From Acutalibacteraceae bacterium (GTDB taxonomy: Bacteria; Bacillota_I; Bacilli_A; RFN20; CAG-449), in NCBI GenBank assembly GCA_963610315.1, contig CAVDMV010000001.1, forward strand, positions 77,441 through 141,440: DNA of 64,000 nt, read 5' to 3'. A program made the translations under genes and the position numbers. This document shows positions 13,854 to 49,152 of the stretch, one piece after another (position 1 is the stretch's first letter; each line of letters begins with the position of its first letter). A model generated the notes under the pieces. That model saw only the letters and a list, made by a program, of their open reading frames with translations. It searched no databases and had not been told where the DNA came from.

Positions 13854-16445
13854 TTAATCATTAATTCCAGGAATGATTGCTTCACGAGCTTCAGAACCAG
13901 GATTTTTATTTTTAAGTTTTGCTTCTTCCATCTTCTTTTTATTAATCTTTTCTCTATTGATTGAGAATGAGAAATGAATATGTTTAAAGAAGAATAATTG
14001 GCAAGGAAGAGCAAGAATGATTGTTGCAATATAACCAACTAATATTGTAATCGCCATCGCTCCATATGTTGAGAATACACTTGAAGTTAATGGTGAAGCG
14101 AATGCTACAACGAAAGTAGAAACTAAGGCAAATAAAGTAATTACGCTGATAATTCTAGTTTCAGAAGCTAATACATCATTCGCGATAATCGCTCTTTGTT
14201 CATAAGTACCAACTTTAATTTTATTTTCTCTTAATAAGACTTTATTTCTTTCATAGAGAGGAATTTGAATAATCATAACAACGATTAAGCCTGCTGCAAT
14301 ACCAGTTAATGATAAAGCAGACATACCAATTCTACTTGCTACGTAGAAAGAAATAGCGACTAATGAAGTTGGGATTAATGTAACTAATGTAGATAAACCA
14401 TATGTAATACCGTATCTAATTAATACGAATACAACTGATAAGCCTGCAAATAATGAAACAACAATAATCGCAGAAGTAGTTAAGTAATTAACACTTGAAG
14501 AAGTAACTTCGACAATTGCAGCTGTTACTTGATAATCTGCGGAAGAATAATTTGTATTTTCTTGAATAGTAGAAATTAAATTTGAATCATTGATTTGATC
14601 AATTTCTGAAGCAGTTAATGTTGTATTAAATGCGACAGATACATAAGCGACGTCATGTTTTTGAACTGTTGTATAATCTTCTGCTTCTGGTAAAACATCT
14701 TCAACAACTTTAATATCAATTGTATAAATCTTATTCGCGATACTTGGATATTTATTATCAAAGAAAGATTGTACATCTTCAGATTTTTCAAACATATAGT
14801 GTCCGCTTGAATTATCAACATAAGAAGACATTTCAATACGAGTATAAGTCTCTGAATCAGAAGAAACATTAAAGACATTAGTTGAAGGAATAATAATAAA
14901 TACTGCAATTAAGATAACACATAAACCAGAAATAACAGTTGCGACAATTGAATTTCTCTTTAAGTTCTTAACTGGATCAACTTTAGAAATAACTTTAGTT
15001 GTTTTTTCATCTAAAATACTTACTTTATTAGCCTTTACTCCAAAGATAGAAAGTTTTTCACTAGCTACCTTATTATGAGTTAACCAATACATTTCAAATA
15101 AAGTATATAAACGATTAACAATTAAACTGACACATGTACCAATTAATAATACTGCAGGGAATAATTTAGTTTGAGAAGAAACTGCATTAACCGCGATAAT
15201 TGTAATAAATAAACCTAAGACTGTAACATCAATTAAGTTAACTAAAGTAGATTTAGTTGCTTGTTGATTAGCTTTAATTGCAGTCTTAGCATTTTGTAAT
15301 TCACTCTTAAATTTAGTTAAATAAACAATGGCATAAGAGGTATTCATAATTAATGAAGCTAAGAAACCTAAGCTAACCATTGTTGTAAATGTATAACCAA
15401 AGAAATTAAATAAAATTAATTGGATGAATAAACTTAGTAAGATAGAAGTAAATGCTCCTAAACCTGCAAGTCTAAATCTTGCTACTAAATAGATTAATGC
15501 AACTAATGAACCACCGATAATACCATAGATAATAATATTTGTATAAGCATTACCTTCACTTGCTTCAATTCTTTGAGTATAAAGTCTTTTCATTGAATAA
15601 GTTGATGAACCATAGTTAATAATTCTTTCAACAGTATGAGCGGATTCAGCAACCATTTCTGTTTGAGTATAGTCATAAGCAGAAATTTTAAATGAAGCAT
15701 CTTGGTAATCACCATTCGCGTCTTCTGTATAAGTAAAGTTATCAGTAGGAACTAAAGCTAAGATTTTATCTCTAATTTCTTCTTGTCTTAAAGTTTCAGT
15801 ATCTTGATAAGCTTCAACATAAGAATCATTTTCAGTTTTATCAAGCCATAAGACCATAACACCAGTAATGTTGTTATTATCTTCACTTCCTGAATTATAT
15901 TTTTCCATGAACTTTTTATAAGCATCATTACATGTATCAACGAATTTCTTAAATTCTTTTGCATCCTTTAATTCGACTGAAACATAAGGAGTTGATGAAT
16001 TCCATTCAACGCTTGCGCTACCAATGACGAATGGTTCTTCCATTTCTAATGAATAATCAGCATCGTTAGAAAGTAAAGTTGAAACTGTAATTTTACCTGT
16101 AGCTTCAACTGATCTAAGAACATAGTCTAAATCAGTTTCTGTTTGAGCGTTCATCTTGATACGGATGAAGTTTTCATCTCCATCGCTAGATTTTTCAACC
16201 GCAACACTTGCGTTTTCAACTCCAGCATCTTCAATTCTACTAACAACAGTGTTACCAATGTCATTAATGTTGTTGTTATCAGAACCTAAGTCAACTTTAT
16301 ATAAAGTTTCATAGCCACCTTCATATTCAAGGCCTGAATTAATTTTTTCTCTTTGTGGGTTAAATCCACAAACAATGATCAATAATGTAGATATTATCAA
16401 TAATAAGAATCCATAGAATCGACGCATTTTCTTCCTCCTAAACAA
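13854..16445 (-). CDS. secDF: protein translocase subunit SecDF (fused SecD-SecF)
   Basis: 863 aa. An N-terminal TM is followed by a large periplasmic-type domain and then two RND-like six-helix bundles. Confidence 0.9.
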   Translation of the reverse strand: MFRRKKMRRFYGFLLLIISTLLIIVCGFNPQREKINSGLEYEGGYETLYKVDLGSDNNNINDIGNTVVSRIEDAGVENASVAVEKSSDGDENFIRIKMNAQTETDLDYVLRSVEATGKITVSTLLSNDADYSLEMEEPFVIGSASVEWNSSTPYVSVELKDAKEFKKFVDTCNDAYKKFMEKYNSGSEDNNNITGVMVLWLDKTENDSYVEAYQDTETLRQEEIRDKILALVPTDNFTYTEDANGDYQDASFKISAYDYTQTEMVAESAHTVERIINYGSSTYSMKRLYTQRIEASEGNAYTNIIIYGIIGGSLVALIYLVARFRLAGLGAFTSILLSLFIQLILFNFFGYTFTTMVSLGFLASLIMNTSYAIVYLTKFKSELQNAKTAIKANQQATKSTLVNLIDVTVLGLFITIIAVNAVSSQTKLFPAVLLIGTCVSLIVNRLYTLFEMYWLTHNKVASEKLSIFGVKANKVSILDEKTTKVISKVDPVKNLKRNSIVATVISGLCVILIAVFIIIPSTNVFNVSSDSETYTRIEMSSYVDNSSGHYMFEKSEDVQSFFDNKYPSIANKIYTIDIKVVEDVLPEAEDYTTVQKHDVAYVSVAFNTTLTASEIDQINDSNLISTIQENTNYSSADYQVTAAIVEVTSSSVNYLTTSAIIVVSLFAGLSVVFVLIRYGITYGLSTLVTLIPTSLVAISFYVASRIGMSALSLTGIAAGLIVVMIIQIPLYERNKVLLRENKIKVGTYEQRAIIANDVLASETRIISVITLFALVSTFVVAFASPLTSSVFSTYGAMAITILVGYIATIILALPCQLFFFKHIHFSFSINREKINKKKMEEAKLKNKNPGSEAREAIIPGIND

Positions 16446-18353: not shown

Positions 18354-19907
18354 CTATTTAGCATAAATACCAATAGTTGCTTTGTTATTTTCAATTGATT
18401 TAATTCGAATAGTATATTTTAAAGAATTACCATCATTAAATTTAAATTCACTTAATGAAGTAGTTCTAATAAAAGCATCGCTATTATAACTAAATGTAGA
18501 AGTTAAAACTGTTGTAGGATTCTTCTTTGAAACAACATTAATTAAATTGTTGTTCTTATTTAACATAACGCCGGTATTTGAATGAGCGATAGTTACATAT
18601 TTTGAATCTGGTATGTCACTAGGATATTCATGAATATACTTAAATGTTTTTAATTTAGTATCAACTAAACCTAAACGTGCATCGACATGATAAATTTTAA
18701 CAAATGATTTATCGATTAATTGATAAGAACCGTATTTATGTTGAACATCAAATTCATTTAATCCAGTTGGAGTATATAATTCAAGTAATAAATATTCATC
18801 AAATGGTGAATAAGAATAATCTAAACTTGATGAAGGAATAAGTAATGCGCTACCTCCATCTTCTAAAGAAGTAATTTCATAATCACCTTCAGAAGAAACT
18901 AAAGTAGGAGTTAACCAATTTAATTCATATTTAGAAAAAGCATTTTGATCACCAATATTTTGATCCATCATATCTAACTTACCAACTGGAGTAGTTGAAG
19001 AAGATGAATAATAATCAGATAAGCCTAATAAATGACCAAATTCATGAATAAAAATATGTCCATCAACTAGTAAGTTATTATTTTCATCTTTATATCCACC
19101 ATTCTTAAGATAATTATAGCTTAACCAAGTATAACTTGGGCAAGTTGGATTATCGATATTTGCTTCTTCTACATTAGTGACTGTATAAGCAAAAAGTGTC
19201 GTTAATAAATTATCCTTCATATTTGGAGTTAAAGTAGTATTATAGTAACTTTCATAATAAGAAATACAATCATTACCACTTCCATATGATTCATAATCGT
19301 TATTAGGGAAAACGATAGCTAATCCATCATAATATCCATCTTTATCAGAATCATAATTCTTCATTAAATCTGGATATTCTACTTTTAACCATGAAATAAC
19401 TTTATCTTTTAAATAAGTGATAGGATCACTATGAGAAGCAGTTTGAACATGTTCTAAAAGTGTAGTTCCAAGTGAACAATAATTAGTTACTGTTCCTTTT
19501 AAGCTAAATTTACCATAGCTTGATTTATGATAATAACTTGCTACACTTTCGTATCCAGTTGGATGAAGCGAATTAGGAGTATTAACGCTATCACCAAAGA
19601 AGACATTATAAATATCTTCCTTTGATTGTTCTTCATTAATACCTAATATTTCTGGAGTAAAATCAGTAAAATATACTGGAACTACAATTAATTCATTTTC
19701 GCCTTGTGAAGGAAATAAATGTTGATTTAATCCTGTTTTTATTTGCTCTAAAGTAATCTTTTGAAAATTATCTTTTTTTGTTTCACTTGAACTAGATTCG
19801 TTACTAGAAGAATCACTACTAGTTACACTTGAAGAAGACACCCCGTTACAAGAAAATAAAGTAATAGTAGCAAGTGTAACTAAAGCGTATGATAATATTT
19901 TTTTCAT
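18354..19907 (-). CDS. secreted lipoprotein, putative zinc metallopeptidase (HExxHxxGxxD, M6/InhA-like)
   Basis: Lipobox LFSC followed by a Ser-rich linker (SSSSVTSSDSSSNESSSSE). The zinc-binding motif HEFGHLLGLSDYY is present; 517 aa. Confidence 0.6.
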   Translation of the reverse strand: MKKILSYALVTLATITLFSCNGVSSSSVTSSDSSSNESSSSETKKDNFQKITLEQIKTGLNQHLFPSQGENELIVVPVYFTDFTPEILGINEEQSKEDIYNVFFGDSVNTPNSLHPTGYESVASYYHKSSYGKFSLKGTVTNYCSLGTTLLEHVQTASHSDPITYLKDKVISWLKVEYPDLMKNYDSDKDGYYDGLAIVFPNNDYESYGSGNDCISYYESYYNTTLTPNMKDNLLTTLFAYTVTNVEEANIDNPTCPSYTWLSYNYLKNGGYKDENNNLLVDGHIFIHEFGHLLGLSDYYSSSSTTPVGKLDMMDQNIGDQNAFSKYELNWLTPTLVSSEGDYEITSLEDGGSALLIPSSSLDYSYSPFDEYLLLELYTPTGLNEFDVQHKYGSYQLIDKSFVKIYHVDARLGLVDTKLKTFKYIHEYPSDIPDSKYVTIAHSNTGVMLNKNNNLINVVSKKNPTTVLTSTFSYNSDAFIRTTSLSEFKFNDGNSLKYTIRIKSIENNKATIGIYAK

Positions 19908-22284: not shown

Positions 22285-22455
22285 AAATTTCGTTACCTCC
22301 TATTTTCTATAGACTTAGACTCGCTTTAAAGGTAGATTTTGACATCTTTAAAAAGACCTTTTCAATGCGGTTGAGGCCCTCTATAAGGCGACAACATATA
22401 TAAAATATCAAAAATAAAACATTAATTCAATAAAATATTTCATCTTTTCAATTTT

Positions 22456-23937
22456 TTAGTTAAGAATAGAGAGTAAATTAATTAAAAGTTCTTTACTAGT
22501 AACAATTAGAATAATATTTTCTCTCGCTCTAGTTAAGCCTTGATATAACATCTTGACGATAGGATATTTAGTGTCTTCTATCTCTTTTCCTTTTAATTCT
22601 CCATCTTCATAATAAAAATAAGAATTTAAAATCATCACAACTTTTTGAAAGTCTTGTCCGACTACTTCATTTGAATCTAAAATATTTAAATTATCTTCTA
22701 AGCTAGCATTCATTTGTTTAATAGGATAACGAATAAATGTATAATCTAACTTATTTAATTCTAATGCTCTTTTTATAGCCTTCTTTTCATTAGGTTCATA
22801 AATTATTGAGCAACTGTCCTTAAGAGGAATATCTTTATTAAAATTATTTAAGTTAAAGACGCAATCGATAAAAGAAATTACTTCTACATTTGATCTAATT
22901 TTATTAGTTAAACGATAATGTGTCTCTTTAGTTTCTTGAAGAATTAATGAAATGACCTTTTTGGCATTTTCACTATTAAAGATTACTTGATTCGCGTCAT
23001 AAGAAAATATGCATCTCTTACGATTATCTTTTATATATTGAACAATTTTAAAGAATTTTTCATAAGGATAAATTCTTTGCGTTTCATCAAAGAAAATATA
23101 ATCATATTTATCGAGAGTTTTTAAAGATACTTTATTTAATTCTTTAATCGTTAAATTTTCAATTTTTTCATTTAAAATTCTATGTCCTTCGCTTAATGCT
23201 TCAACATTAATAATTAATACTTTACCTTTAAATGAAAAATCATAAGCTAAATCATATAGAAGCAATGTTTTACCAGTTCCAGGTGAACCTGTTAAAGCAA
23301 AAACATTACGTTTATTTTGCTTAATTAAATCTTTTATCTTCTTTTTAATATCTCTTTGATGAGGAGTTAAAATGTATTTTCCTTCAATGAATTTCTCATT
23401 ATTATTTAATGGAGAAACTAAAATATTCTTTGGATTATAAATTTCATCTAAATTGACTGATTGATCAACTGGTAATTTTAAATATTCTAAAAGTTCTTCT
23501 TTAGTCGATTCAACAAGTGTCTTATCTACTAATTTATATAATTTATTTACAACACTTTTATAAGTAAAATGAACTGCATGTTTTTTGCCGATAACATTAG
23601 TAAAATAACGGTTTTGTTTTAATTGATCTAGTACCTTATTTAAAGATATATCTCCGCTTTTAAGTTCGATATTAATTATTGTATCAGAAGTTATTTTTAA
23701 TAAATCCATCTCTTTATTTAAATGTGGAACAACATAGCCAAAAATAAAACCTTCTACTAAAGAACAATTATCATTAATGCCTAAGAATTTTAATAATTTT
23801 TCGATATCTAAAATTTCATTATGATGATATTCACGTCCAGGATAAAAAGAACATAAATAAGAAACATAATTCTTAGAAATATCTTCTTCTTTTGAAAGTT
23901 TTACTAAATCATATAAAGATACTAATTTATAAGCCAT
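22456..23937 (-). CDS. SF1-helicase-like P-loop ATPase (DUF2075-type motifs) with an N-terminal PD-(D/E)xK-like domain; candidate nuclease-helicase
   Basis: Walker A ALTGSPGTGKT, Walker B YIFFDETQ, motif III-like SYDANQVIF, motif V-like VVGQDFQKVVMIL and motif VI-like YQGLTRARENIILI. The N-terminal ~190 aa carries EMDLLKI...IINIELK, which is consistent with hD...hhExK. Confidence 0.55.
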   Translation of the reverse strand: MAYKLVSLYDLVKLSKEEDISKNYVSYLCSFYPGREYHHNEILDIEKLLKFLGINDNCSLVEGFIFGYVVPHLNKEMDLLKITSDTIINIELKSGDISLNKVLDQLKQNRYFTNVIGKKHAVHFTYKSVVNKLYKLVDKTLVESTKEELLEYLKLPVDQSVNLDEIYNPKNILVSPLNNNEKFIEGKYILTPHQRDIKKKIKDLIKQNKRNVFALTGSPGTGKTLLLYDLAYDFSFKGKVLIINVEALSEGHRILNEKIENLTIKELNKVSLKTLDKYDYIFFDETQRIYPYEKFFKIVQYIKDNRKRCIFSYDANQVIFNSENAKKVISLILQETKETHYRLTNKIRSNVEVISFIDCVFNLNNFNKDIPLKDSCSIIYEPNEKKAIKRALELNKLDYTFIRYPIKQMNASLEDNLNILDSNEVVGQDFQKVVMILNSYFYYEDGELKGKEIEDTKYPIVKMLYQGLTRARENIILIVTSKELLINLLSILN

Positions 23938-23945
23938 AATTTCAC

Positions 23946-24860
23946 CTACTTATTCAATGAACAAAGTGCGATTGGACTTGTTTTTAAATAAAATATTTCA
24001 TTTTTATTCACTATTTCATTATATATATCTTTATTTGCTTTTGAAGCCCCGGCATTATTTAAAGCTTCCATCGGCGATTTATTAGAAACATAAAAAGTTA
24101 ATAAACCTAATTCGTTTCTTTTCTTAATAAGTGGTAAGATAATATCAGTTTTAATATTTGAATACATGCTTTCAAGCATAAAATTATCTAAGAATAAATA
24201 TTTTACTTTGGTCAACATTTCAAAATCAAATTCATAATTAGCCTTATTAAAACGATAATTATCTGATAAATCTTTAAAAAATCCTGAACAATCAATATAA
24301 GAAATATATTCATCTTTTAATGATAATGATAAGGATTTAGAAAAAACAGACATCATAAAAGTTTTGCCAATTCCATCTTCTCCATAAAGATAAATTCCTT
24401 TATTTAATTCAATTCCTTTAGCGATTTTTGCCATCTTAGTCACAACTTTAGTTCGATCACTAGCAAAATAATTTAATAATTCTTTTAAAGGATAATTAAA
24501 ATAGCTTTTATCAGTTTCACAAATGATGAATTTAGAAACGACGTTATCGTTTTCTAATTTAAAATTACAACGAGAAATAATTTCTTCTAATTTATTTTTC
24601 TTGTCATCGTAATAAAGTTTTAAAATAAAACCACCTTTTGAACAAGAATTTAACCCTTGGCAATTTTTACATTTTTCTTTATCTTTCATGACACGAGAAA
24701 AATAAGAAACATTTTTATAGACAAATTCTTCATTTAATGAATTCGCTTTAATAAAGTCAAACATCTCTTTATTTTCATAAACTTTTTTAAATGTTTCTTT
24801 TTTTATCTTTTCTATTTCATCATAGTCGAGATGAATAATGTCATCAATATTTACACTCAT
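23946..24860 (-). CDS. dnaI: primosomal helicase loader DnaI
   Basis: N-terminal zinc motif CKNCQGLNSC and AAA+ Walker A GEDGIGKTF; 304 aa, directly downstream of dnaB. Confidence 0.8.
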   Translation of the reverse strand: MSVNIDDIIHLDYDEIEKIKKETFKKVYENKEMFDFIKANSLNEEFVYKNVSYFSRVMKDKEKCKNCQGLNSCSKGGFILKLYYDDKKNKLEEIISRCNFKLENDNVVSKFIICETDKSYFNYPLKELLNYFASDRTKVVTKMAKIAKGIELNKGIYLYGEDGIGKTFMMSVFSKSLSLSLKDEYISYIDCSGFFKDLSDNYRFNKANYEFDFEMLTKVKYLFLDNFMLESMYSNIKTDIILPLIKKRNELGLLTFYVSNKSPMEALNNAGASKANKDIYNEIVNKNEIFYLKTSPIALCSLNK

Positions 24861-33192: not shown

Positions 33193-34122
33193 CTATTCAT
33201 CAATATTAATTGTATAAATATCTTTATCATTACTTAAAGGGTTCGCGCTTCCTTCATTATTCTTTAAAATTTTAATAATTTCAAAGATATTATAAGCAAT
33301 AAAACCCATAATTGTTCCTAAAGCTAATGAATCAACGATATCTAAGATATTTAATGTTAGATTATTAGTTCCAGTTCCACCAAGATAATTAGTAATACCA
33401 CACATACCTAAAGTAGAACCAACAATATGTAATAAACCATATACAATAACAAAACCAATTGTTAAATACGCATCTAATAAAGTATCTTCAATCTTATCAT
33501 TAAAGATGATTAAGAAGAATTTTTTAAAACATCTTAATGAAGAAAAAGTTAATAAAGCAATTAGACATCCATAGATAATAAATTGATAGCCTAATTCTTT
33601 CATCGTTAAGACAGCTTTTTCATCAAGAGTTAATCCATATTGCGTTATCATCGTATTAAATTGTTCAGGATTAGAATAATATAAATTACTAATTCCAATA
33701 TAAGAAATTCCATCAAAAATAAGGAAAACCGAAGCAATAATTAATATAACTTTTAGAATTCTTCTTAAGATAAAAATATTATTTAATAATGATTTTTTTG
33801 GATTTGCATCATTTACATCATTATTCTTACTTAGTTTATAAATCTTATATAAATAATAAGCAAAATATAAAGGAAATATTAATTCAACTAATGATGATAA
33901 AACAATCGAAGTAATATTAGAAGCATCTATTGAAGTAAGCGTGAAGATATTTGAAGTAATAGTATAAGCAAAAATAATAATTGAATAAAAAATTAAACTA
34001 ATAATAAGTCCAATAAACTTATAAGAAGTAAAATGTTTTTTTAAAGCAATGACCTTATTAGATTCATTTTCTTTAAAAGATAACATTCTATTAACTTGAT
34101 TATTAAGTTCTTCTCGATTCAT
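33193..34122 (-). CDS. polytopic membrane protein of unknown function (about 6 TM); start overlaps the atpC stop
   Basis: 309-aa ORF with multiple hydrophobic helices. ATGA overlap with atpC at 34122. Confidence 0.55.
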   Translation of the reverse strand: MNREELNNQVNRMLSFKENESNKVIALKKHFTSYKFIGLIISLIFYSIIIFAYTITSNIFTLTSIDASNITSIVLSSLVELIFPLYFAYYLYKIYKLSKNNDVNDANPKKSLLNNIFILRRILKVILIIASVFLIFDGISYIGISNLYYSNPEQFNTMITQYGLTLDEKAVLTMKELGYQFIIYGCLIALLTFSSLRCFKKFFLIIFNDKIEDTLLDAYLTIGFVIVYGLLHIVGSTLGMCGITNYLGGTGTNNLTLNILDIVDSLALGTIMGFIAYNIFEIIKILKNNEGSANPLSNDKDIYTINIDE

Positions 34123-41333: not shown

Positions 41334-41424
41334 TGGCGGAGAAACAGAGATTTGAACTCTGGCGGGGCTTTCACCCCCTAATGGTTTTCAAGACCATCCC
41401 CTTCAGCCACTTGGGTATTTCTCC
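41334..41424 (-). tRNA. tRNA-Ser (anticodon UGA)
   Basis: Minus-strand sequence GGAGAAATACCCAAGTGGCTGAAGGGGATGGTCTTGAAAACCATT...GGTTCAAATCT...CTCCGCCA. It has a long variable arm, anticodon loop CUUGAAA, and an encoded CCA. Confidence 0.85.
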
Positions 41425-41437
41425 ATGTTAATTAGTT

Positions 41438-41513
41438 TGGTGGACCCTGCAGGACTTGAACCTGCAACGACCCGTTTATGAGACGGGGGCTCTAACCATT
41501 GAACTAAGGGTCC
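41438..41513 (-). tRNA. tRNA with CAU anticodon, probably tRNA-Ile2 (lysidine-type) by resemblance to B. subtilis tRNA-Ile(CAU)
   Basis: GGACCCTTAGTTCAATGGTTAGAGCCCCCGTCTCATAAACGGG...GGTTCAAGTCC...GGGTCCACCA. G1-C72 is paired, so it is not an initiator. Confidence 0.7.
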
Positions 41514-41520
41514 TTATAAT

Positions 41521-41597
41521 TGGTGGCGGCAGAGGGGGTCGAACCCTCGACCTGCCGGGTATGAGCCGGCCGCTCTAACCAACTGGGCTACACCGCC
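41521..41597 (-). tRNA. elongator tRNA-Met (CAU)
   Basis: GGCGGTGTAGCCCAGTTGGTTAGAGCGGCCGGCTCATACCCGGCAGGTCGAGGGTTCGA...GCCGCCACCA, close to B. subtilis elongator tRNA-Met. Confidence 0.75.
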
Positions 41598-45028: not shown

Positions 45029-45163
45029 TTTTAAATACCTTTCTTTCAATTAAACATTCGTCTAACCTAAAATATTATATTAGAAACACCACAATAAAAG
45101 ATAGAAAAAAAATTGATTTTAGAAAAAAAGATTGTGTAAGTGTTACCAACTTACACAACCTAA

Positions 45164-45508
45164 TTAGTCTATTTCAATTTGTTTAATATTAAACTCATTT
45201 CCTTTAAGTAAATATGTATTTTCTGAACCACAGAAAGGACAAATTTTGCCATGTTCAACCGTCGAATATTCTTTTGAACAATTTTCACAGAAAGTTATCG
45301 CTTTAATAATCTCTACTTTAAGTTCACAGTTTTCAAGTTCGACATGTTTTTTTCTTGCCCAATTCCAGCAATCAATTAATAAATCTGGAACGACAGTTGA
45401 AACTTCTCCAAGTTCAATAATTACGCGGTCAACGTGAGCGATATTATTCTTATGAGCAATCGAAACTACATGATCTACTACGTGGAAAGTTACACCTAAT
45501 TCATGCAT
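45164..45508 (-). CDS. hypA: hydrogenase/urease nickel-incorporation protein HypA
   Basis: 114 aa with an N-terminal MHE and a C-terminal zinc ribbon CENC...CPFCG. Confidence 0.8.
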   Translation of the reverse strand: MHELGVTFHVVDHVVSIAHKNNIAHVDRVIIELGEVSTVVPDLLIDCWNWARKKHVELENCELKVEIIKAITFCENCSKEYSTVEHGKICPFCGSENTYLLKGNEFNIKQIEID

Positions 45509-48417
45509 TACTTGCTAGCTTCCTTACTAGCTTTCTTTTGAGCTTTTTTCCATTCCTTATGTGCTTTTTCTGATGCTTTTTCTTCAGCAGTATGTTTACC
45601 AAATTTAATTTTTACTGCACGTTTAATTGCATATGGAAGGATATATTTAAATTTATCTTCAGATTTAACCATCTTTGTGCATTCTGGATGATCTCTAACT
45701 AAAGTAATTGCATCGAACATACATTTTGTTGTACAAATACCGCAGCCAATACATTTATTTCCATCAACTACTGATGCACCACAAGATAAACATCTTGCTG
45801 TTTCAATCTTAACTTGTTCTTCAGTTAATGTTAAATGAGCATCTTTAAATGATGATTTTTGATCAATTGAAGTATCTAGTCCTGCTTCTTGTCTACCAGC
45901 AGTATCATAAGAATCAACTTTAATATTGTTCTTATCTAGCATAATGAAGTCTCTTCTATTTCTACCAATTGTTAATGAAGCATGTTCATGAACATATCTA
46001 TGGAGAGATTCAGCCGCGCATTTACCAGCTTCAATTGCATCAATCGCGAATTTTGGTCCTGTATAGACATCACCACCGACGAAGATATCTTCTTCAGCAG
46101 TTTGATATGTTAATTTATCGGCGATTGGATAATTTCCGTGCCAATAAGTTACTTTAGTTCCTTTTAATAAGTCACCCCAGACGATGCTTTGACCAATTGC
46201 GAAGATAACGTGACGAGCATTAACTTCGATTGTTTCATTTTCATCGTATTGAGGATTGAATTTACCTGTTGCATCTTTAGTAGATGTACATCTCTTAAAG
46301 ACAACGCCTCTAACAGCACCTAATTCATCCTTAAGAACTTCTTTTGGTCCCCAAGCATTATTAATTTCAATATTTTCTTCAAGAGTTTCACTAATTTCTT
46401 CATTTGAAGCAGGCATTTCTTCACGTGTTTCAAGTGAGAACATACTGACTTTAGAAGCACCAAATCTTAAAGCAGTTCTTGCGCAGTCAACTGCAACGTT
46501 ACCTCCGCCAACGACAACGACTTCACCATCAAGTTTTTGAGATAAATCTTCTGCCGCATTATGTAAGAAATTAACTGCAATATCAACACCTTTCGCGTCT
46601 TCTCCGTCAATACCAGGTAATCTACCACCTTGGCAACCAATTGCGACATAGAAAGCTTGATAGCCTTGTTTTCTTAATTCTTCAATTGTGACATCTTTAC
46701 CGACTTCAACACCAGTCTTAATTTCAACGCCGAGTTCTCTAATTACATCAATTTCAGCTTCGATAACATCTTTTTCAAGTTTATATGATGGAATACCATA
46801 AGTTAACATACCACCACATTTTTTATTCTTTTCAAAAATTGTTGGTTTATAACCTTTAGTTGCTAAATAATAAGCACATGATAAACCAGCAGGACCAGCA
46901 CCGATAATCGCGATTTTTTGTTCCCAATGATCTAATCTATTTGAAGCAATAGTCACTTCTGGAATATAACGAGTTTCTGCTTTTAAATCTTGTTCAGCAA
47001 GGAATTTTTTAACCGCATCAATAGAAACAGCTTTATCGATATTACCTCTAGTACAAGCTTCTTCACAACGTTTATTACAAATACGTCCGCAGATAGCTGG
47101 AAGTGGATTATCTTTCTTAATTAATGCTAACGCATCTTTATATCTACCTTCAGCTGCAAGTTTTAAATAGCCTTGAACTGCAACGTGAGCAGGACAAGCA
47201 GTTTTACAAGGAGCAGTACCTGTTTCATAACAGTTAATTCTATTGTTATCACGATAATTTTCATCGTATTTATCTCTACCCCAACTCATATTGTCAGGTA
47301 ATTCATGTTTTGGATAAACAACTTGAGAACCATCTTTCTTACATAATTTTTGACCTAATTTAACTGCACCAGCTGGGCAATATTCAACGCACTTACCACA
47401 AGCGACACATTTTTTAGCATCGACATGAGCAGTATAAGCACTACGTGACATATTTGGAGTATTGAATAATTGAGATGTTCTTAAAGCATTACAAATGTTA
47501 ACATTACAGTTACAAATACCGAAGATTTTATTTTCTCCATCAATATTAGTGATTTGATGAACGAAACCATTATCTTCTGCAATTTTTAAAATACGCATTG
47601 CCTCTTCATAACTAATATCGTGGCCTTTACCTGTTTCACGGCAATAATCTGCAAAATCACCAACACCGATACACCAGTTGTATTGATCATCCGCGCAGCC
47701 TTCATCTAAAGCCGCTCTAGAAGCTCTACAAGAACATTGACCAACACCGATATGGCCTTCATATTTCTTTAACCAATATGATAAGTGTTCTAAATCCATG
47801 GAAGTATTTTCCATTTCGATCGCTTTTTCTACTGGGATGACGTGCATACCAACGCCACTACCTCCTGGAGGAACTAATTGAGTAATTCCGTCAAGAGGAA
47901 TAAAAGTCATTCTTTCAAAGAAAGAAGCGACAGCTGGATGTTCTCTTAAACGTGGATTATCCATCTTCTTTCCATCAGGAGTAATAAATTTTTCATCCAT
48001 ATTGAATAATTCAGCACTACCTGGAACGAATAATGGTAAAACATATCTTCTTTCACTTTGAGGAGCAGTTCTACCATTGTGGTCATAGTGATAACCATAA
48101 TCATATTCAAGTAAACCAATATATGACATTTCATCTAATAATTTTTGGAAATGTTCTTTATCTTTTGCTTGATTAGGATTCATTTTACATAAATCTTCAA
48201 AAGTATAGTGATGTCTTACTTTCATTGTTAAAGCAACATCTGCCATTTCGTCTGTTACGATATCAGCAAGTCCCCAATATTCAGGATCTTCAACTTTAAC
48301 ACCATGTAATTTATGGTCTAAAACGTCAGTAATCTTCTTTCCTAATTTAACAATCTTTTCATTTGCGACTTTGTCACTCATATGTGGTGGGACAACTTTT
48401 TTACTCATTTCTGGCAT
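45508..48417 (-). CDS. large multi-cluster iron-sulfur flavoprotein: Cys-rich N-domain + 4Fe-4S ferredoxin + GltD/NfnB-like FAD-NAD(P) oxidoreductase + C-terminal ferredoxin (YgfK-like architecture)
   Basis: CSCRASRAALDEGC...WCIGVGDFADYC...ICNCNVNICNAL; CVACGKCVEYCP; CYETGTAPCKTACP...CGRICNKRCEEAC; dinucleotide fold IAIIGAGPAGLSCAYYL and VVVVGGGNVAVDCA; C-terminal CLSCGASVVDGNKCIGCGICTTKC. Start/stop are coupled to hypB (TAGTGTATG) and hypA (TAATG). Confidence 0.8.
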   Translation of the reverse strand: MPEMSKKVVPPHMSDKVANEKIVKLGKKITDVLDHKLHGVKVEDPEYWGLADIVTDEMADVALTMKVRHHYTFEDLCKMNPNQAKDKEHFQKLLDEMSYIGLLEYDYGYHYDHNGRTAPQSERRYVLPLFVPGSAELFNMDEKFITPDGKKMDNPRLREHPAVASFFERMTFIPLDGITQLVPPGGSGVGMHVIPVEKAIEMENTSMDLEHLSYWLKKYEGHIGVGQCSCRASRAALDEGCADDQYNWCIGVGDFADYCRETGKGHDISYEEAMRILKIAEDNGFVHQITNIDGENKIFGICNCNVNICNALRTSQLFNTPNMSRSAYTAHVDAKKCVACGKCVEYCPAGAVKLGQKLCKKDGSQVVYPKHELPDNMSWGRDKYDENYRDNNRINCYETGTAPCKTACPAHVAVQGYLKLAAEGRYKDALALIKKDNPLPAICGRICNKRCEEACTRGNIDKAVSIDAVKKFLAEQDLKAETRYIPEVTIASNRLDHWEQKIAIIGAGPAGLSCAYYLATKGYKPTIFEKNKKCGGMLTYGIPSYKLEKDVIEAEIDVIRELGVEIKTGVEVGKDVTIEELRKQGYQAFYVAIGCQGGRLPGIDGEDAKGVDIAVNFLHNAAEDLSQKLDGEVVVVGGGNVAVDCARTALRFGASKVSMFSLETREEMPASNEEISETLEENIEINNAWGPKEVLKDELGAVRGVVFKRCTSTKDATGKFNPQYDENETIEVNARHVIFAIGQSIVWGDLLKGTKVTYWHGNYPIADKLTYQTAEEDIFVGGDVYTGPKFAIDAIEAGKCAAESLHRYVHEHASLTIGRNRRDFIMLDKNNIKVDSYDTAGRQEAGLDTSIDQKSSFKDAHLTLTEEQVKIETARCLSCGASVVDGNKCIGCGICTTKCMFDAITLVRDHPECTKMVKSEDKFKYILPYAIKRAVKIKFGKHTAEEKASEKAHKEWKKAQKKASKEASK

Positions 48418-48420
48418 ACA

Positions 48421-49152
48421 CTACTCTCCTTTTTTTATGCTTTCAATTTTATTTTTTATCCAAGATGCTAATTCATTAACTCCTTCCCCAGTTTTCGCGG
48501 AGATTAATAATATATCTGCATTAGGATTATCGAGTTTTATTCTTTCTTTGCTTTTTTCAATATCGAAGTCAAATACTGGTAAAACATCTATTTTATTAAT
48601 TACAACTAAATCACTCACTTCATAAATAAGAGGATATTTGCTTGGCTTATCGTCTCCTTCAGGAACTGAAAGAATCGTCATATTAATTTGTGCACCTGTA
48701 TCAAATTCAGCTGGACAAACTAAATTACCAATATTTTCTAAGACAATGAAATCGAATTCCTCATAGTTAATGGCTTCTAAACCTTGTTTAGTCATACTTG
48801 CATCAAGATGACACATACCACCGGTATGAAGCTGTATCGCTTTAACTCCAGTTTCATTTTGAATCGTTAAAGCATCAACATCAGAATCGATATCTGCCTC
48901 CATGACCCCAATTTTAAAATCCTTCTTTAAAATGTTGATCAGTTTAATTAATGTCGATGTTTTTCCACTACCAGGTGAAGACATTAGGTTAAGCAAAAAA
49001 ACTTTCTTTTTATTTAATAATGATCTAAGTTCATTAGCTTCTAAGTCATTATTACCTAAAATAGACTCTTTAACTTCTAAAATCTTTACTTGATCCATAA
49101 AACACCTCACGTTTAATTTTATAAAATAAAAGTGAGGTTGTAAAGTATACAC
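48421..49152 (-). CDS. hypB: nickel-incorporation GTPase HypB
   Basis: SPGSGKTS P-loop, ENIGNLVCPA and the CH motif region (HTGGMCHLDA); 243 aa. Confidence 0.85.
   Translation of the reverse strand: MYTLQPHFYFIKLNVRCFMDQVKILEVKESILGNNDLEANELRSLLNKKKVFLLNLMSSPGSGKTSTLIKLINILKKDFKIGVMEADIDSDVDALTIQNETGVKAIQLHTGGMCHLDASMTKQGLEAINYEEFDFIVLENIGNLVCPAEFDTGAQINMTILSVPEGDDKPSKYPLIYEVSDLVVINKIDVLPVFDFDIEKSKERIKLDNPNADILLISAKTGEGVNELASWIKNKIESIKKGE

Follow-up and report, generated by a model that had tools for sequence, protein, structure and literature searches.

A three-gene cassette, hypB-X-hypA, lies head to tail on the minus strand of the 64,000-nucleotide stretch of DNA analysed here (the window; positions 77,441 to 141,440 of contig CAVDMV010000001.1, Acutalibacteraceae bacterium assembly GCA_963610315.1). 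X is used throughout as shorthand for the gene of the cassette that encodes a 969-residue iron-sulphur (Fe-S) flavoprotein, and for its product. The favoured reading, held with moderate confidence, is that the locus is self-contained and would encode a Ni/Fe-S reductase, namely an IsrA-like Fe-S flavoprotein of the NfnB/GltD/DPD type (DPD, dihydropyrimidine dehydrogenase) accompanied by its own nickel chaperones. This concept is already in print, and the window adds no new one. Indeed, Kronen et al. 2023 described an IsrA-like 'clade 9' family together with its six-cysteine (Cys6) site and its linkage to HypA/HypB (PMC10134865), and every testable clade 9 feature is found in X, i.e., length, core, N-terminal domain, Cys6 site, ferredoxin motifs, and hypA/hypB neighbours. 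Judged by these described features rather than by the IsrA sequence, X is a new member of this published, bioinformatically defined family. The initial annotation, made from the letters of the stretch, had proposed a Ni-dependent or Ni-maturation-linked redox enzyme with no assigned function; the first part is still the most economical explanation, whereas the second is outdated by the work of Kronen et al. The features concerned are the following, in the direction of transcription.

49116-49144, minus strand: promoter-like site (TTTACA, 17 nt, TAAAAT) upstream of hypB, with 10/12 consensus matches
48421-49098, minus strand: hypB, 225-residue Ni-binding GTPase (TIGR00073 235.5 bits, cut-off 121.2; Pfam cobW match)
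45508-48417, minus strand: X, 969-residue IsrA-like Fe-S flavoprotein (open reading frame, domain matches, and family alignments)
47443-48417, minus strand: N-terminal domain of X, residues 1-325, with no Pfam or PDB relative
47491-47736, minus strand: Cys6 region of X, residues 228-309 (C228-x-C230, C249, C302-x-C304, and C309, plus C241, R231, R234, H287, and N303), proposed Ni/Fe-S site
47338-47439, minus strand: first ferredoxin half-motif of X, residues 327-360 (C337-x2-C340-x2-C343-x3-C347-P; Pfam Fer4 at residues 331-352)
46981-47235, minus strand: Fer4_20 domain of X, 2x[4Fe-4S], DPD/NfnB/GltD type, residues 395-479 (PF14691, E = 4.8e-23)
46024-46917, minus strand: FAD/NAD(P)H-binding module of X, residues 501-798 (Pyr_redox_2, PF07992)
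45685-45801, minus strand: C-terminal ferredoxin half-motif of X, residues 873-911 (C876-x2-C879; C889-x2-C892-x2-C895-x3-C899)
45164-45508, minus strand: hypA, 114-residue Ni metallochaperone (PF01155, E = 2.6e-29, 101.9 bits, cut-off 28.9)
45129-45161, minus strand: intrinsic terminator directly after the hypA stop, with a 13-bp stem and a T-run

The arrangement is not a peculiarity of this genome. An alignment of the N-terminal domain of X was scanned against one genome per species, and at least 594 species genomes carry the domain; synteny was then assessed by tblastn with the HypA and HypB of the window in the best 80 of these loci, each from a different species. The order hypB-X-hypA occurs in 47/80 loci, X followed by hypA only in 16/80, X-hypA-hypB in 5/80, and hypB-hypA-X in 3/80. 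Overall, hypA stands beside X in 73/80 (within 300 bp in 71/80) and hypB lies within 6 kb of X in 58/80. Four of the seven loci devoid of hypA are cut off where X ends. When all flanking open reading frames (ORFs) of the 80 loci were clustered, no other flanking family was present in more than nine of them. The initial annotation had called for such a comparison in relatives and had named non-conservation as the finding that would speak against it; the arrangement turned out to be conserved, and chance adjacency is rejected because the X-hypA linkage is kept in 73/80 species.

The 80 loci include Lachnospiraceae (among them the cultured Pseudobutyrivibrio ruminis and P. xylanivorans), Oscillospiraceae such as Gemmiger formicilis, and Erysipelotrichaceae, and they also span Anaeroplasma, Acholeplasmatales, Spirochaetia, Eggerthellaceae, and Bacteroidales. 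Bacillota, Mollicutes-like lineages, Spirochaetia, Actinomycetota, and Bacteroidales all show the conserved X-hypA(-hypB) linkage. On a metagenomic scaffold of 223 kb, a relative with 60% identity displays the same hypB-X-hypA order in an unrelated context. What is inherited as a unit is the cassette. Moreover, identities of the N-terminal domain between phyla reach 75-80%, which suggests exchange across phyla within gut and rumen communities.

Several side observations concern these relatives. In the 60%-identical metagenomic relative, X is divided into two overlapping ORFs (680 + 273 residues) in different frames (L004:8001-10816), a frameshift present in both the ENA and the Logan assemblies that reflects either misassembly or a pseudogene. 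In an uncultured Anaeroplasmataceae genome, X-hypA is preceded upstream by two hypB copies in tandem (L013:4607-5999). The only PLSDB match for the N-terminal domain is a 267-kb Subdoligranulum variabile 'plasmid' record, MOBV mobilizable, 59% identical and essentially unannotated (OY725877.1:188101-201042, L086). Finally, 9/80 loci, from Bacteroidales and some Lachnospiraceae and Oscillospiraceae (e.g., L074:9649-10755, L076:4841-5899), encode a membrane protein of the DUF5692 family (PF18948, E = 8e-136) after the cassette. This protein is absent from the window, is also a frequent neighbour in the list of Kronen et al. (PMC10134865), and may be a substrate or metal transporter.

Within the window, the three ORFs stand where the initial annotation had placed them, and their junctions can be read directly. 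The hypB stop TAG (48421-48423) is followed by TGT and then by the ATG of X at 48417, leaving a gap of 3 nt; the AGGAG Shine-Dalgarno sequence of X falls within the final hypB codons; and the stop of X shares the letters TAATG with the start of hypA at 45508. The 5' end of hypB had to be revised. The longest hypB ORF opens at a GTG at 49152, the start retained initially, whereas the real start is almost certainly the ATG at 49098, giving the 225-residue product, because a GAGGTG Shine-Dalgarno sequence is found a few nucleotides upstream, because gene callers in three assemblies pick this form, and because the alignment to Helicobacter pylori HypB opens at residue 7 of the 225-residue form.

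The trio looks like one transcription unit because it is bracketed by a promoter-like site and a terminator, and these, with the tight junctions, bear out the co-expression suggested in the initial annotation. The terminator after hypA is convincing. The promoter-like site has the joint top score of the region, two other sites also reaching 10/12, and the evidence for it is weak because such sites are rarer in the region than in shuffled sequence. No riboswitch or other regulatory RNA was detected near the trio by an Rfam scan. The spacers are tight (3 nt and -1 nt, vs medians of ~68 nt and ~34 nt in the other loci), and this extreme compaction is a trait of the present lineage. As the cassette is compact, carries a promoter-like site and a terminator of its own, and includes no additional subunit, it is well suited to heterologous expression. 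The analysis placed the window on contig CAVAPL010000040.1 of GCA_963590545.1, with GCA_963643105.1 and GCA_963616035.1 as related assemblies. X is identical in the three assemblies and four contigs compared; its 90% cluster has 26 members, and the 15 members listed are all of 969 residues. A search for tig beside ispD without the cassette found that every contig with the same Tig also has hypA and X. The GC content of X is 35-37% vs ~29% in the immediate flanks, an excess which is no evidence of recent transfer because dnaJ and dnaK are equally GC-rich.

The N-terminal domain is the most distinctive part of X. Residues 1-325 match nothing in Pfam or NCBIfam and no PDB sequence at E <= 10 with the single sequence, and matches obtained with a profile are at chance level; the same domain is found in 958 clusters at 50% identity. 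Residue conservation was assessed in 79 aligned family members belonging to two clades and 46-75% identical to the window protein, the other sampled clade (Clostridium/Spirochaete) being 46-50% identical to X in full-length alignment. In all 79 sequences, C228, C230, C249, C302, C304, and C309, the six cysteines of the Cys6 site, are conserved. Invariant as well are R231, R234, H287, N303, and R313, and C241 is conserved at 96%. The initial annotation had described X as an Fe-S flavoprotein with several clusters and an unusual N-terminal domain rich in Cys; this description is upheld, and the cysteine motifs quoted there exist, six of their residues being invariant.

Downstream of this domain, the cysteines of the first ferredoxin half-motif (C337, C340, C343, and C347) and six cysteines of Fer4_20 (C404, C408, C443, C447, C451, and C455) are likewise invariant. 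Those of the C-terminal half-motif are 93-100% conserved among the 53-58 sequences reaching that region, where Pfam matches are weak and under the gathering cut-off (Fer4_9 at residues 888-911, E = 3e-05, 24.4 vs 27 bits; Fer4_10 at residues 883-900). Beyond the Cys6, eight ferredoxin-motif, and six Fer4_20 cysteines, C359, C710, C876, and C879 are 97-100% conserved; these four might serve as further ligands of the Fer4_20 clusters or coordinate one more cluster or metal. A model of full-length X built with AlphaFold2 from a multiple sequence alignment has a pLDDT of 87.8 and a pTM of 0.89, with a low-confidence insert around residues 144-150. Solved relatives cover only residues ~395-900, the best being NfnB, GltD, and DPD.

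Both chaperones retain the residues expected for nickel handling. The closest solved relative of HypB is the H. pylori HypB 4LPS (E = 1.7e-46), and alignment to it reveals that the P-loop (GSGKT) and the metal-binding motifs of the G-domain (MCH, NLVCP) are conserved; the N-terminal high-affinity site is lacking. In HypA, aligned to 6g81, the N-terminal MHE Ni motif (MHELGV...) and both Zn-type CxxC motifs (CENC, CPFC) are in place. Its TIGR00100 score stays under the equivalog cut-off of NCBIfam (66.7 vs 88.1 bits), for which reason the protein is considered a divergent HypA subfamily; all other HypA models are likewise far under their cut-offs.

On these grounds, a route for nickel and for electrons can be proposed. 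HypB would pass Ni(II), with its GTPase activity, to HypA, which would insert the metal into, or beside, an Fe-S cluster bound at the Cys6 site. Electrons would flow from NAD(P)H to the flavin adenine dinucleotide (FAD), then through the two Fer4_20 clusters and the two clusters of the flanking ferredoxin half-motifs to the Ni/Fe-S site, where the substrate would be reduced. The analogy is with DPD, in which a flavin and 4x[4Fe-4S] lead to a second site; X would follow the DPD logic with the terminal flavin mononucleotide (FMN) site swapped for a metallocluster. The isoprene-to-methylbutene reaction assigned to IsrA offers a second analogy for the reduction step. In the published IsrA model, the Cys6 site, named 'cluster V', ends both a predicted chain of four [4Fe-4S] clusters and a predicted substrate tunnel (PMC10134865). 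By analogy with IsrA, X probably acts on a C=C bond, unactivated or conjugated, in a small hydrophobic molecule.

Several points weigh against a nickel-dependent reductase. Nickel, the kind of cluster at the Cys6 site, and the substrate are proposals for every family member, and no purification, metal analysis, or structure of any family member was found in the searched literature. The spatial closeness of the six cysteines is known from the published IsrA model alone. About 28% of the sampled loci (22/80) have no hypB within 6 kb, and a few have no hypA. Pelotomaculum relatives have several [NiFe] hydrogenases, and rumen butyrivibrios have an Ech [NiFe] hydrogenase (PMC4478896). The searches covered the 64-kb window, and HypAB may have a further client encoded outside it.

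The first alternative is that X is nickel-free, with the Cys6 site holding an all-iron cluster, either [4Fe-4S] or a larger one of the P-cluster or double-cubane type, and with HypA/HypB recruited for another task, be it supplying Zn, Fe, or some other metal, inserting the cluster with the help of GTP, or acting as a structural or regulatory partner. Kronen et al. themselves liken the Cys6 cluster to P-type and [8Fe-9S] clusters (PMC10134865), and genes for double-cubane-type reductases accompany X in one subclade. The divergence of HypA from TIGR00100, the 22/80 loci where hypB is not near, and the want of a metal analysis in the searched literature fit this alternative too. However, HypA has retained the MHE and the HypB G-domain its CH...C Ni ligands, and a CooC-like ATPase, of the type that inserts Ni into carbon monoxide dehydrogenase (CODH) and acetyl-CoA synthase (ACS), tends to occur where hypB is absent. 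A HypA/HypB pair is furthermore not known to have an established non-Ni role. A nickel-free X is judged unlikely.

According to a second alternative, HypA and HypB serve the maturation of a classical Ni enzyme ([NiFe]-hydrogenase, urease, or CODH) whose genes lie elsewhere in the genome, X being its NAD(P)H-linked module for electron input or output, co-expressed for stoichiometry. HypA/HypB classically serve hydrogenase and urease, the NfnB-like core resembles the electron-transfer subunits of the bifurcating NfnABC and StnABC, and some family hosts do have [NiFe] hydrogenases, the genome search here being that of the 64-kb window. Nevertheless, Pfam scans of the large ORFs detected no hydrogenase, urease, CODH, or hypCDEF gene in the window, which extends to its full length what the initial annotation had stated for the vicinity of the trio. 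Similarly, none of the reading frames of the window contains an L1/L5 signature of [NiFe]-hydrogenase or a urease-alpha signature, none of 85 loci has a [NiFe]-hydrogenase or urease motif, and no hypCDEF, hydrogenase, urease, or CODH genes recur within +/-6 kb in the 80 other species. No slyD or ureEFGH genes accompany the window hypA/hypB. A [NiFe]-hydrogenase maturation locus is rejected for want of hypCDEF or structural genes in the window and of any recurring in the 80 loci. A. wieringae ISORED-2 (Acetobacterium) has the same linkage with neither a [NiFe]-hydrogenase nor hypCDEF in its genome, and dedicated maturases serve its other Ni enzymes (PMC10134865). Besides, an electron-transfer module would not need a 325-residue domain with six invariant Cys, two Arg, and one His. 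As the cassette travels alone, a role of X as the electron module of a hydrogenase encoded elsewhere is improbable.

An Nfn-type bifurcating transhydrogenase (NfnAB) was also considered and rejected. No NfnA-type partner subunit is encoded beside X and no NfnA- or GltB-type gene adjoins it, its neighbours being hypB and hypA, then the ispD-like gene and tig.

The last alternative, an affiliation of X with the YgfK-type 'selenate reductase subunit', as the initial annotation had suggested, or with ordinary GltD/AegA-type NADPH oxidoreductases placed by chance beside hypB/hypA, can practically be dismissed: the GltD-like core is shared (TIGR03315, E = 2e-84 over residues 395-881; PRK12771, 446.8 bits), but every named NCBIfam model stays under its cut-off and covers the core only (TIGR03315 283.7 vs 835.3 bits; PRK12771 446.8 vs 516), residues 395-881 align to TIGR03315 positions 438-888 of 1012 with the N-terminal 437 positions unmatched, the HMM search of the N-terminal region (Pfam, NCBIfam) that had been recommended matched no family, the YgfK N-terminus included, and the adjacency is conserved in 73/80 species.

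A bolder version of the nickel-dependent reading can be formulated, and it is put forward tentatively, as a doubtful proposition. The Cys6 domain would carry a Ni-Fe-S catalytic cluster of a kind not seen before, which HypAB would load with no need of HypCDEF and which would define a new class of nickel enzyme; the gut and rumen clade, which spreads between phyla at up to ~80% identity, would reduce a substrate other than isoprene; and the window cassette would be its smallest complete expression unit. Candidate substrates in this version are an unactivated alkene or diene from the diet or the host, or some other small molecule.

The idea that the gut clade is a rumen conjugated-linoleate reductase was rejected, no supporting literature having been found, and is kept as a low-probability lead. 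The conjugated linoleic acid reductase of B. fibrisolvens is reportedly a different protein. The prompts for this idea were the close homologs in Pseudobutyrivibrio and the A. woodii homolog located beside an oleate hydratase (PMC10134865).

If the family is truly nickel-dependent, it would represent a new client of HypA/HypB with a Ni/Fe-S active site of a new type, and it would explain why hypAB are retained in many anaerobes devoid of [NiFe]-hydrogenase. Gut and rumen bacteria carry the family very commonly (the N-terminal domain in at least 594 species genomes), and it stands for a reductive activity of the microbiome that is still uncharted.

A longer X operon was observed in P. ruminis, P. 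xylanivorans, and several other Lachnospiraceae/Oscillospiraceae, with an X 74-80% identical to that of the window. It includes, in order, a MinD/CooC-like P-loop ATPase, two HGD-D proteins, an acyl-CoA-dehydratase-type activase, a 239-residue protein resembling the middle domain of ACS, X, and hypA. The best NCBIfam match of the HGD-D proteins is the 'double-cubane-cluster-containing anaerobic reductase', under cut-off. The 239-residue protein resembles ACS residues ~299-455 and ends in a C-terminal CxxCx5C tail. The full order is found in L007:488-9423, L009:479-9258, L012, L016, L017, and L028, and part of it in L036, L037, L041, and L059; most of these loci have no hypB. The presence of a CooC-like ATPase and an ACS-related protein in hypB-less operons points to metallocluster assembly, and the longer operon may be an alternative set for cluster assembly or activation. 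This set is absent from the neighbours listed by Kronen et al. (PMC10134865).

The surroundings of the cassette were described from Pfam scans of all large ORFs in the 64-kb window and from a precomputed gene table. The trio is flanked on one side by an IspD-type NTP-transferase, a Zn-ribbon protein, and dnaJ, and on the other by tig and mgtE, in agreement with the initial annotation. Only housekeeping genes were found in the window, i.e., pheST, ftsAZ, ruvAB, obg, pyk, thrS, and the F-type ATP synthase genes, as well as mgtE, tig, the ispD-like gene, dnaJ-dnaK-grpE-hrcA, pyrG, rnhB, and hflX. Five sizeable ORFs have no Pfam family at E <= 1e-8 (863, 517, 493, 304, and 309 residues; 13854-16445, 18354-19907, 22456-23937, 23946-24860, and 33193-34122). 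Three tRNA genes stand in a row on the minus strand between an ATC_hydrolase gene and the ATP synthase operon, and Rfam also identifies, above its gathering score, a ribosomal protein L21 leader, in keeping with a Bacillota host; the coordinates reported jointly for these two features are 41337-41597 and 22307-22382.

Compared with known systems, the N-terminal domain of X sets it apart from the flavoproteins that share its core. NfnB, GltD, StnC, the A subunit of NfnABC, and the N-terminal half of DPD (4ylf_B, 6s6s_G, 8oh5_C, 9bov_A, 9n5u_A, and 1gt8) have no counterpart of residues 1-325, and their TM-scores normalised to X are at most 0.44. The terminal site would also differ, as X would carry a Cys6 metallocluster where DPD has FMN and Nfn a second flavin/ferredoxin site.

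Metalloenzymes offer a looser comparison. In ACS, with the Cys-Gly-Cys of its A-cluster, and in CODH, a Cys-x-Cys beside an Fe-S cluster is a known mode of binding catalytic Ni, as might be the case in X, and the double-cubane [8Fe-9S] reductases (DCCP) illustrate that large all-Cys clusters reduce small unsaturated molecules, e.g., acetylene. The N-terminal domain of X has no detectable sequence similarity to ACS, CODH, or DCCP, and the maturation of X would rely on HypAB, whereas the ACS/CODH type uses CooC/AcsF. The likeness of these sites is an analogy and is retained as a lead.

The chaperones are best compared with those of H. pylori (4LPS, 6G81, and 2KDX). The window HypB is likewise of type 1, without an N-terminal high-affinity site or His stretch, and both HypB proteins have the G-domain CH...C ligands; the MHE Ni site and the Cys4 Zn site are common to both HypA proteins. 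The H. pylori pair serves more than one Ni enzyme and provides a precedent for Ni delivery to a non-hydrogenase client, urease. Unlike that pair, the window pair has no accompanying hydrogenase, urease, or hypCDEF genes, and its client would be new.

The closest described system is IsrA (VUZ27132.1 / WP_228882120.1), the 901-residue putative isoprene reductase of A. wieringae ISORED-2, encoded in the five-gene operon isrA-hypA-hypB-ferredoxin-hypA (PMC10134865). IsrA, HypB, one of the two HypA, and the ferredoxin are strongly induced by isoprene, with log fold changes of 6-11 quoted for IsrA/HypB/HypA, and the second HypA is not significantly more abundant with isoprene (PMC10134865). The IsrA of strain Y is likewise induced (Jin et al. 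2022, PMC9765523). Isoprene reduction by Pelotomaculum is the subject of two 2026 preprints, and hypA and hypB of this organism are up 373-fold and 585-fold, respectively, with isoprene (10.64898/2026.02.25.708027). In a survey of 988 homologs, with Tenericutes among the phyla, 73% neighbour hypA and 56% neighbour hypB (PMC10134865). Isoprene is not implied as the substrate in the window because the host is an uncultured low-GC gut-type Bacillota metagenome-assembled genome and not an acetogen. Compared with the isr operon, the window presents a minimal hypB-X-hypA, without the ferredoxin paralog containing the N-terminal domain and without a second hypA, and X has 969 residues vs 901, its N-terminal domain being ~45 residues longer. 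The IsrA family occurs in strict anaerobes of many phyla, Tenericutes-type lineages included, and IsrA and X are both single polypeptides of ~900-970 residues. The Pfam-less N-terminal region of IsrA contains CxC motifs at C180/182 and C254/256 (PMC10134865), and the 74 residues that separate them are exactly the spacing of C228/C230 and C302/C304 in X. In both proteins, this region is followed in the same order by Fer4, by Fer4_20 with Pyr_redox_2, and by a C-terminal Fer4.

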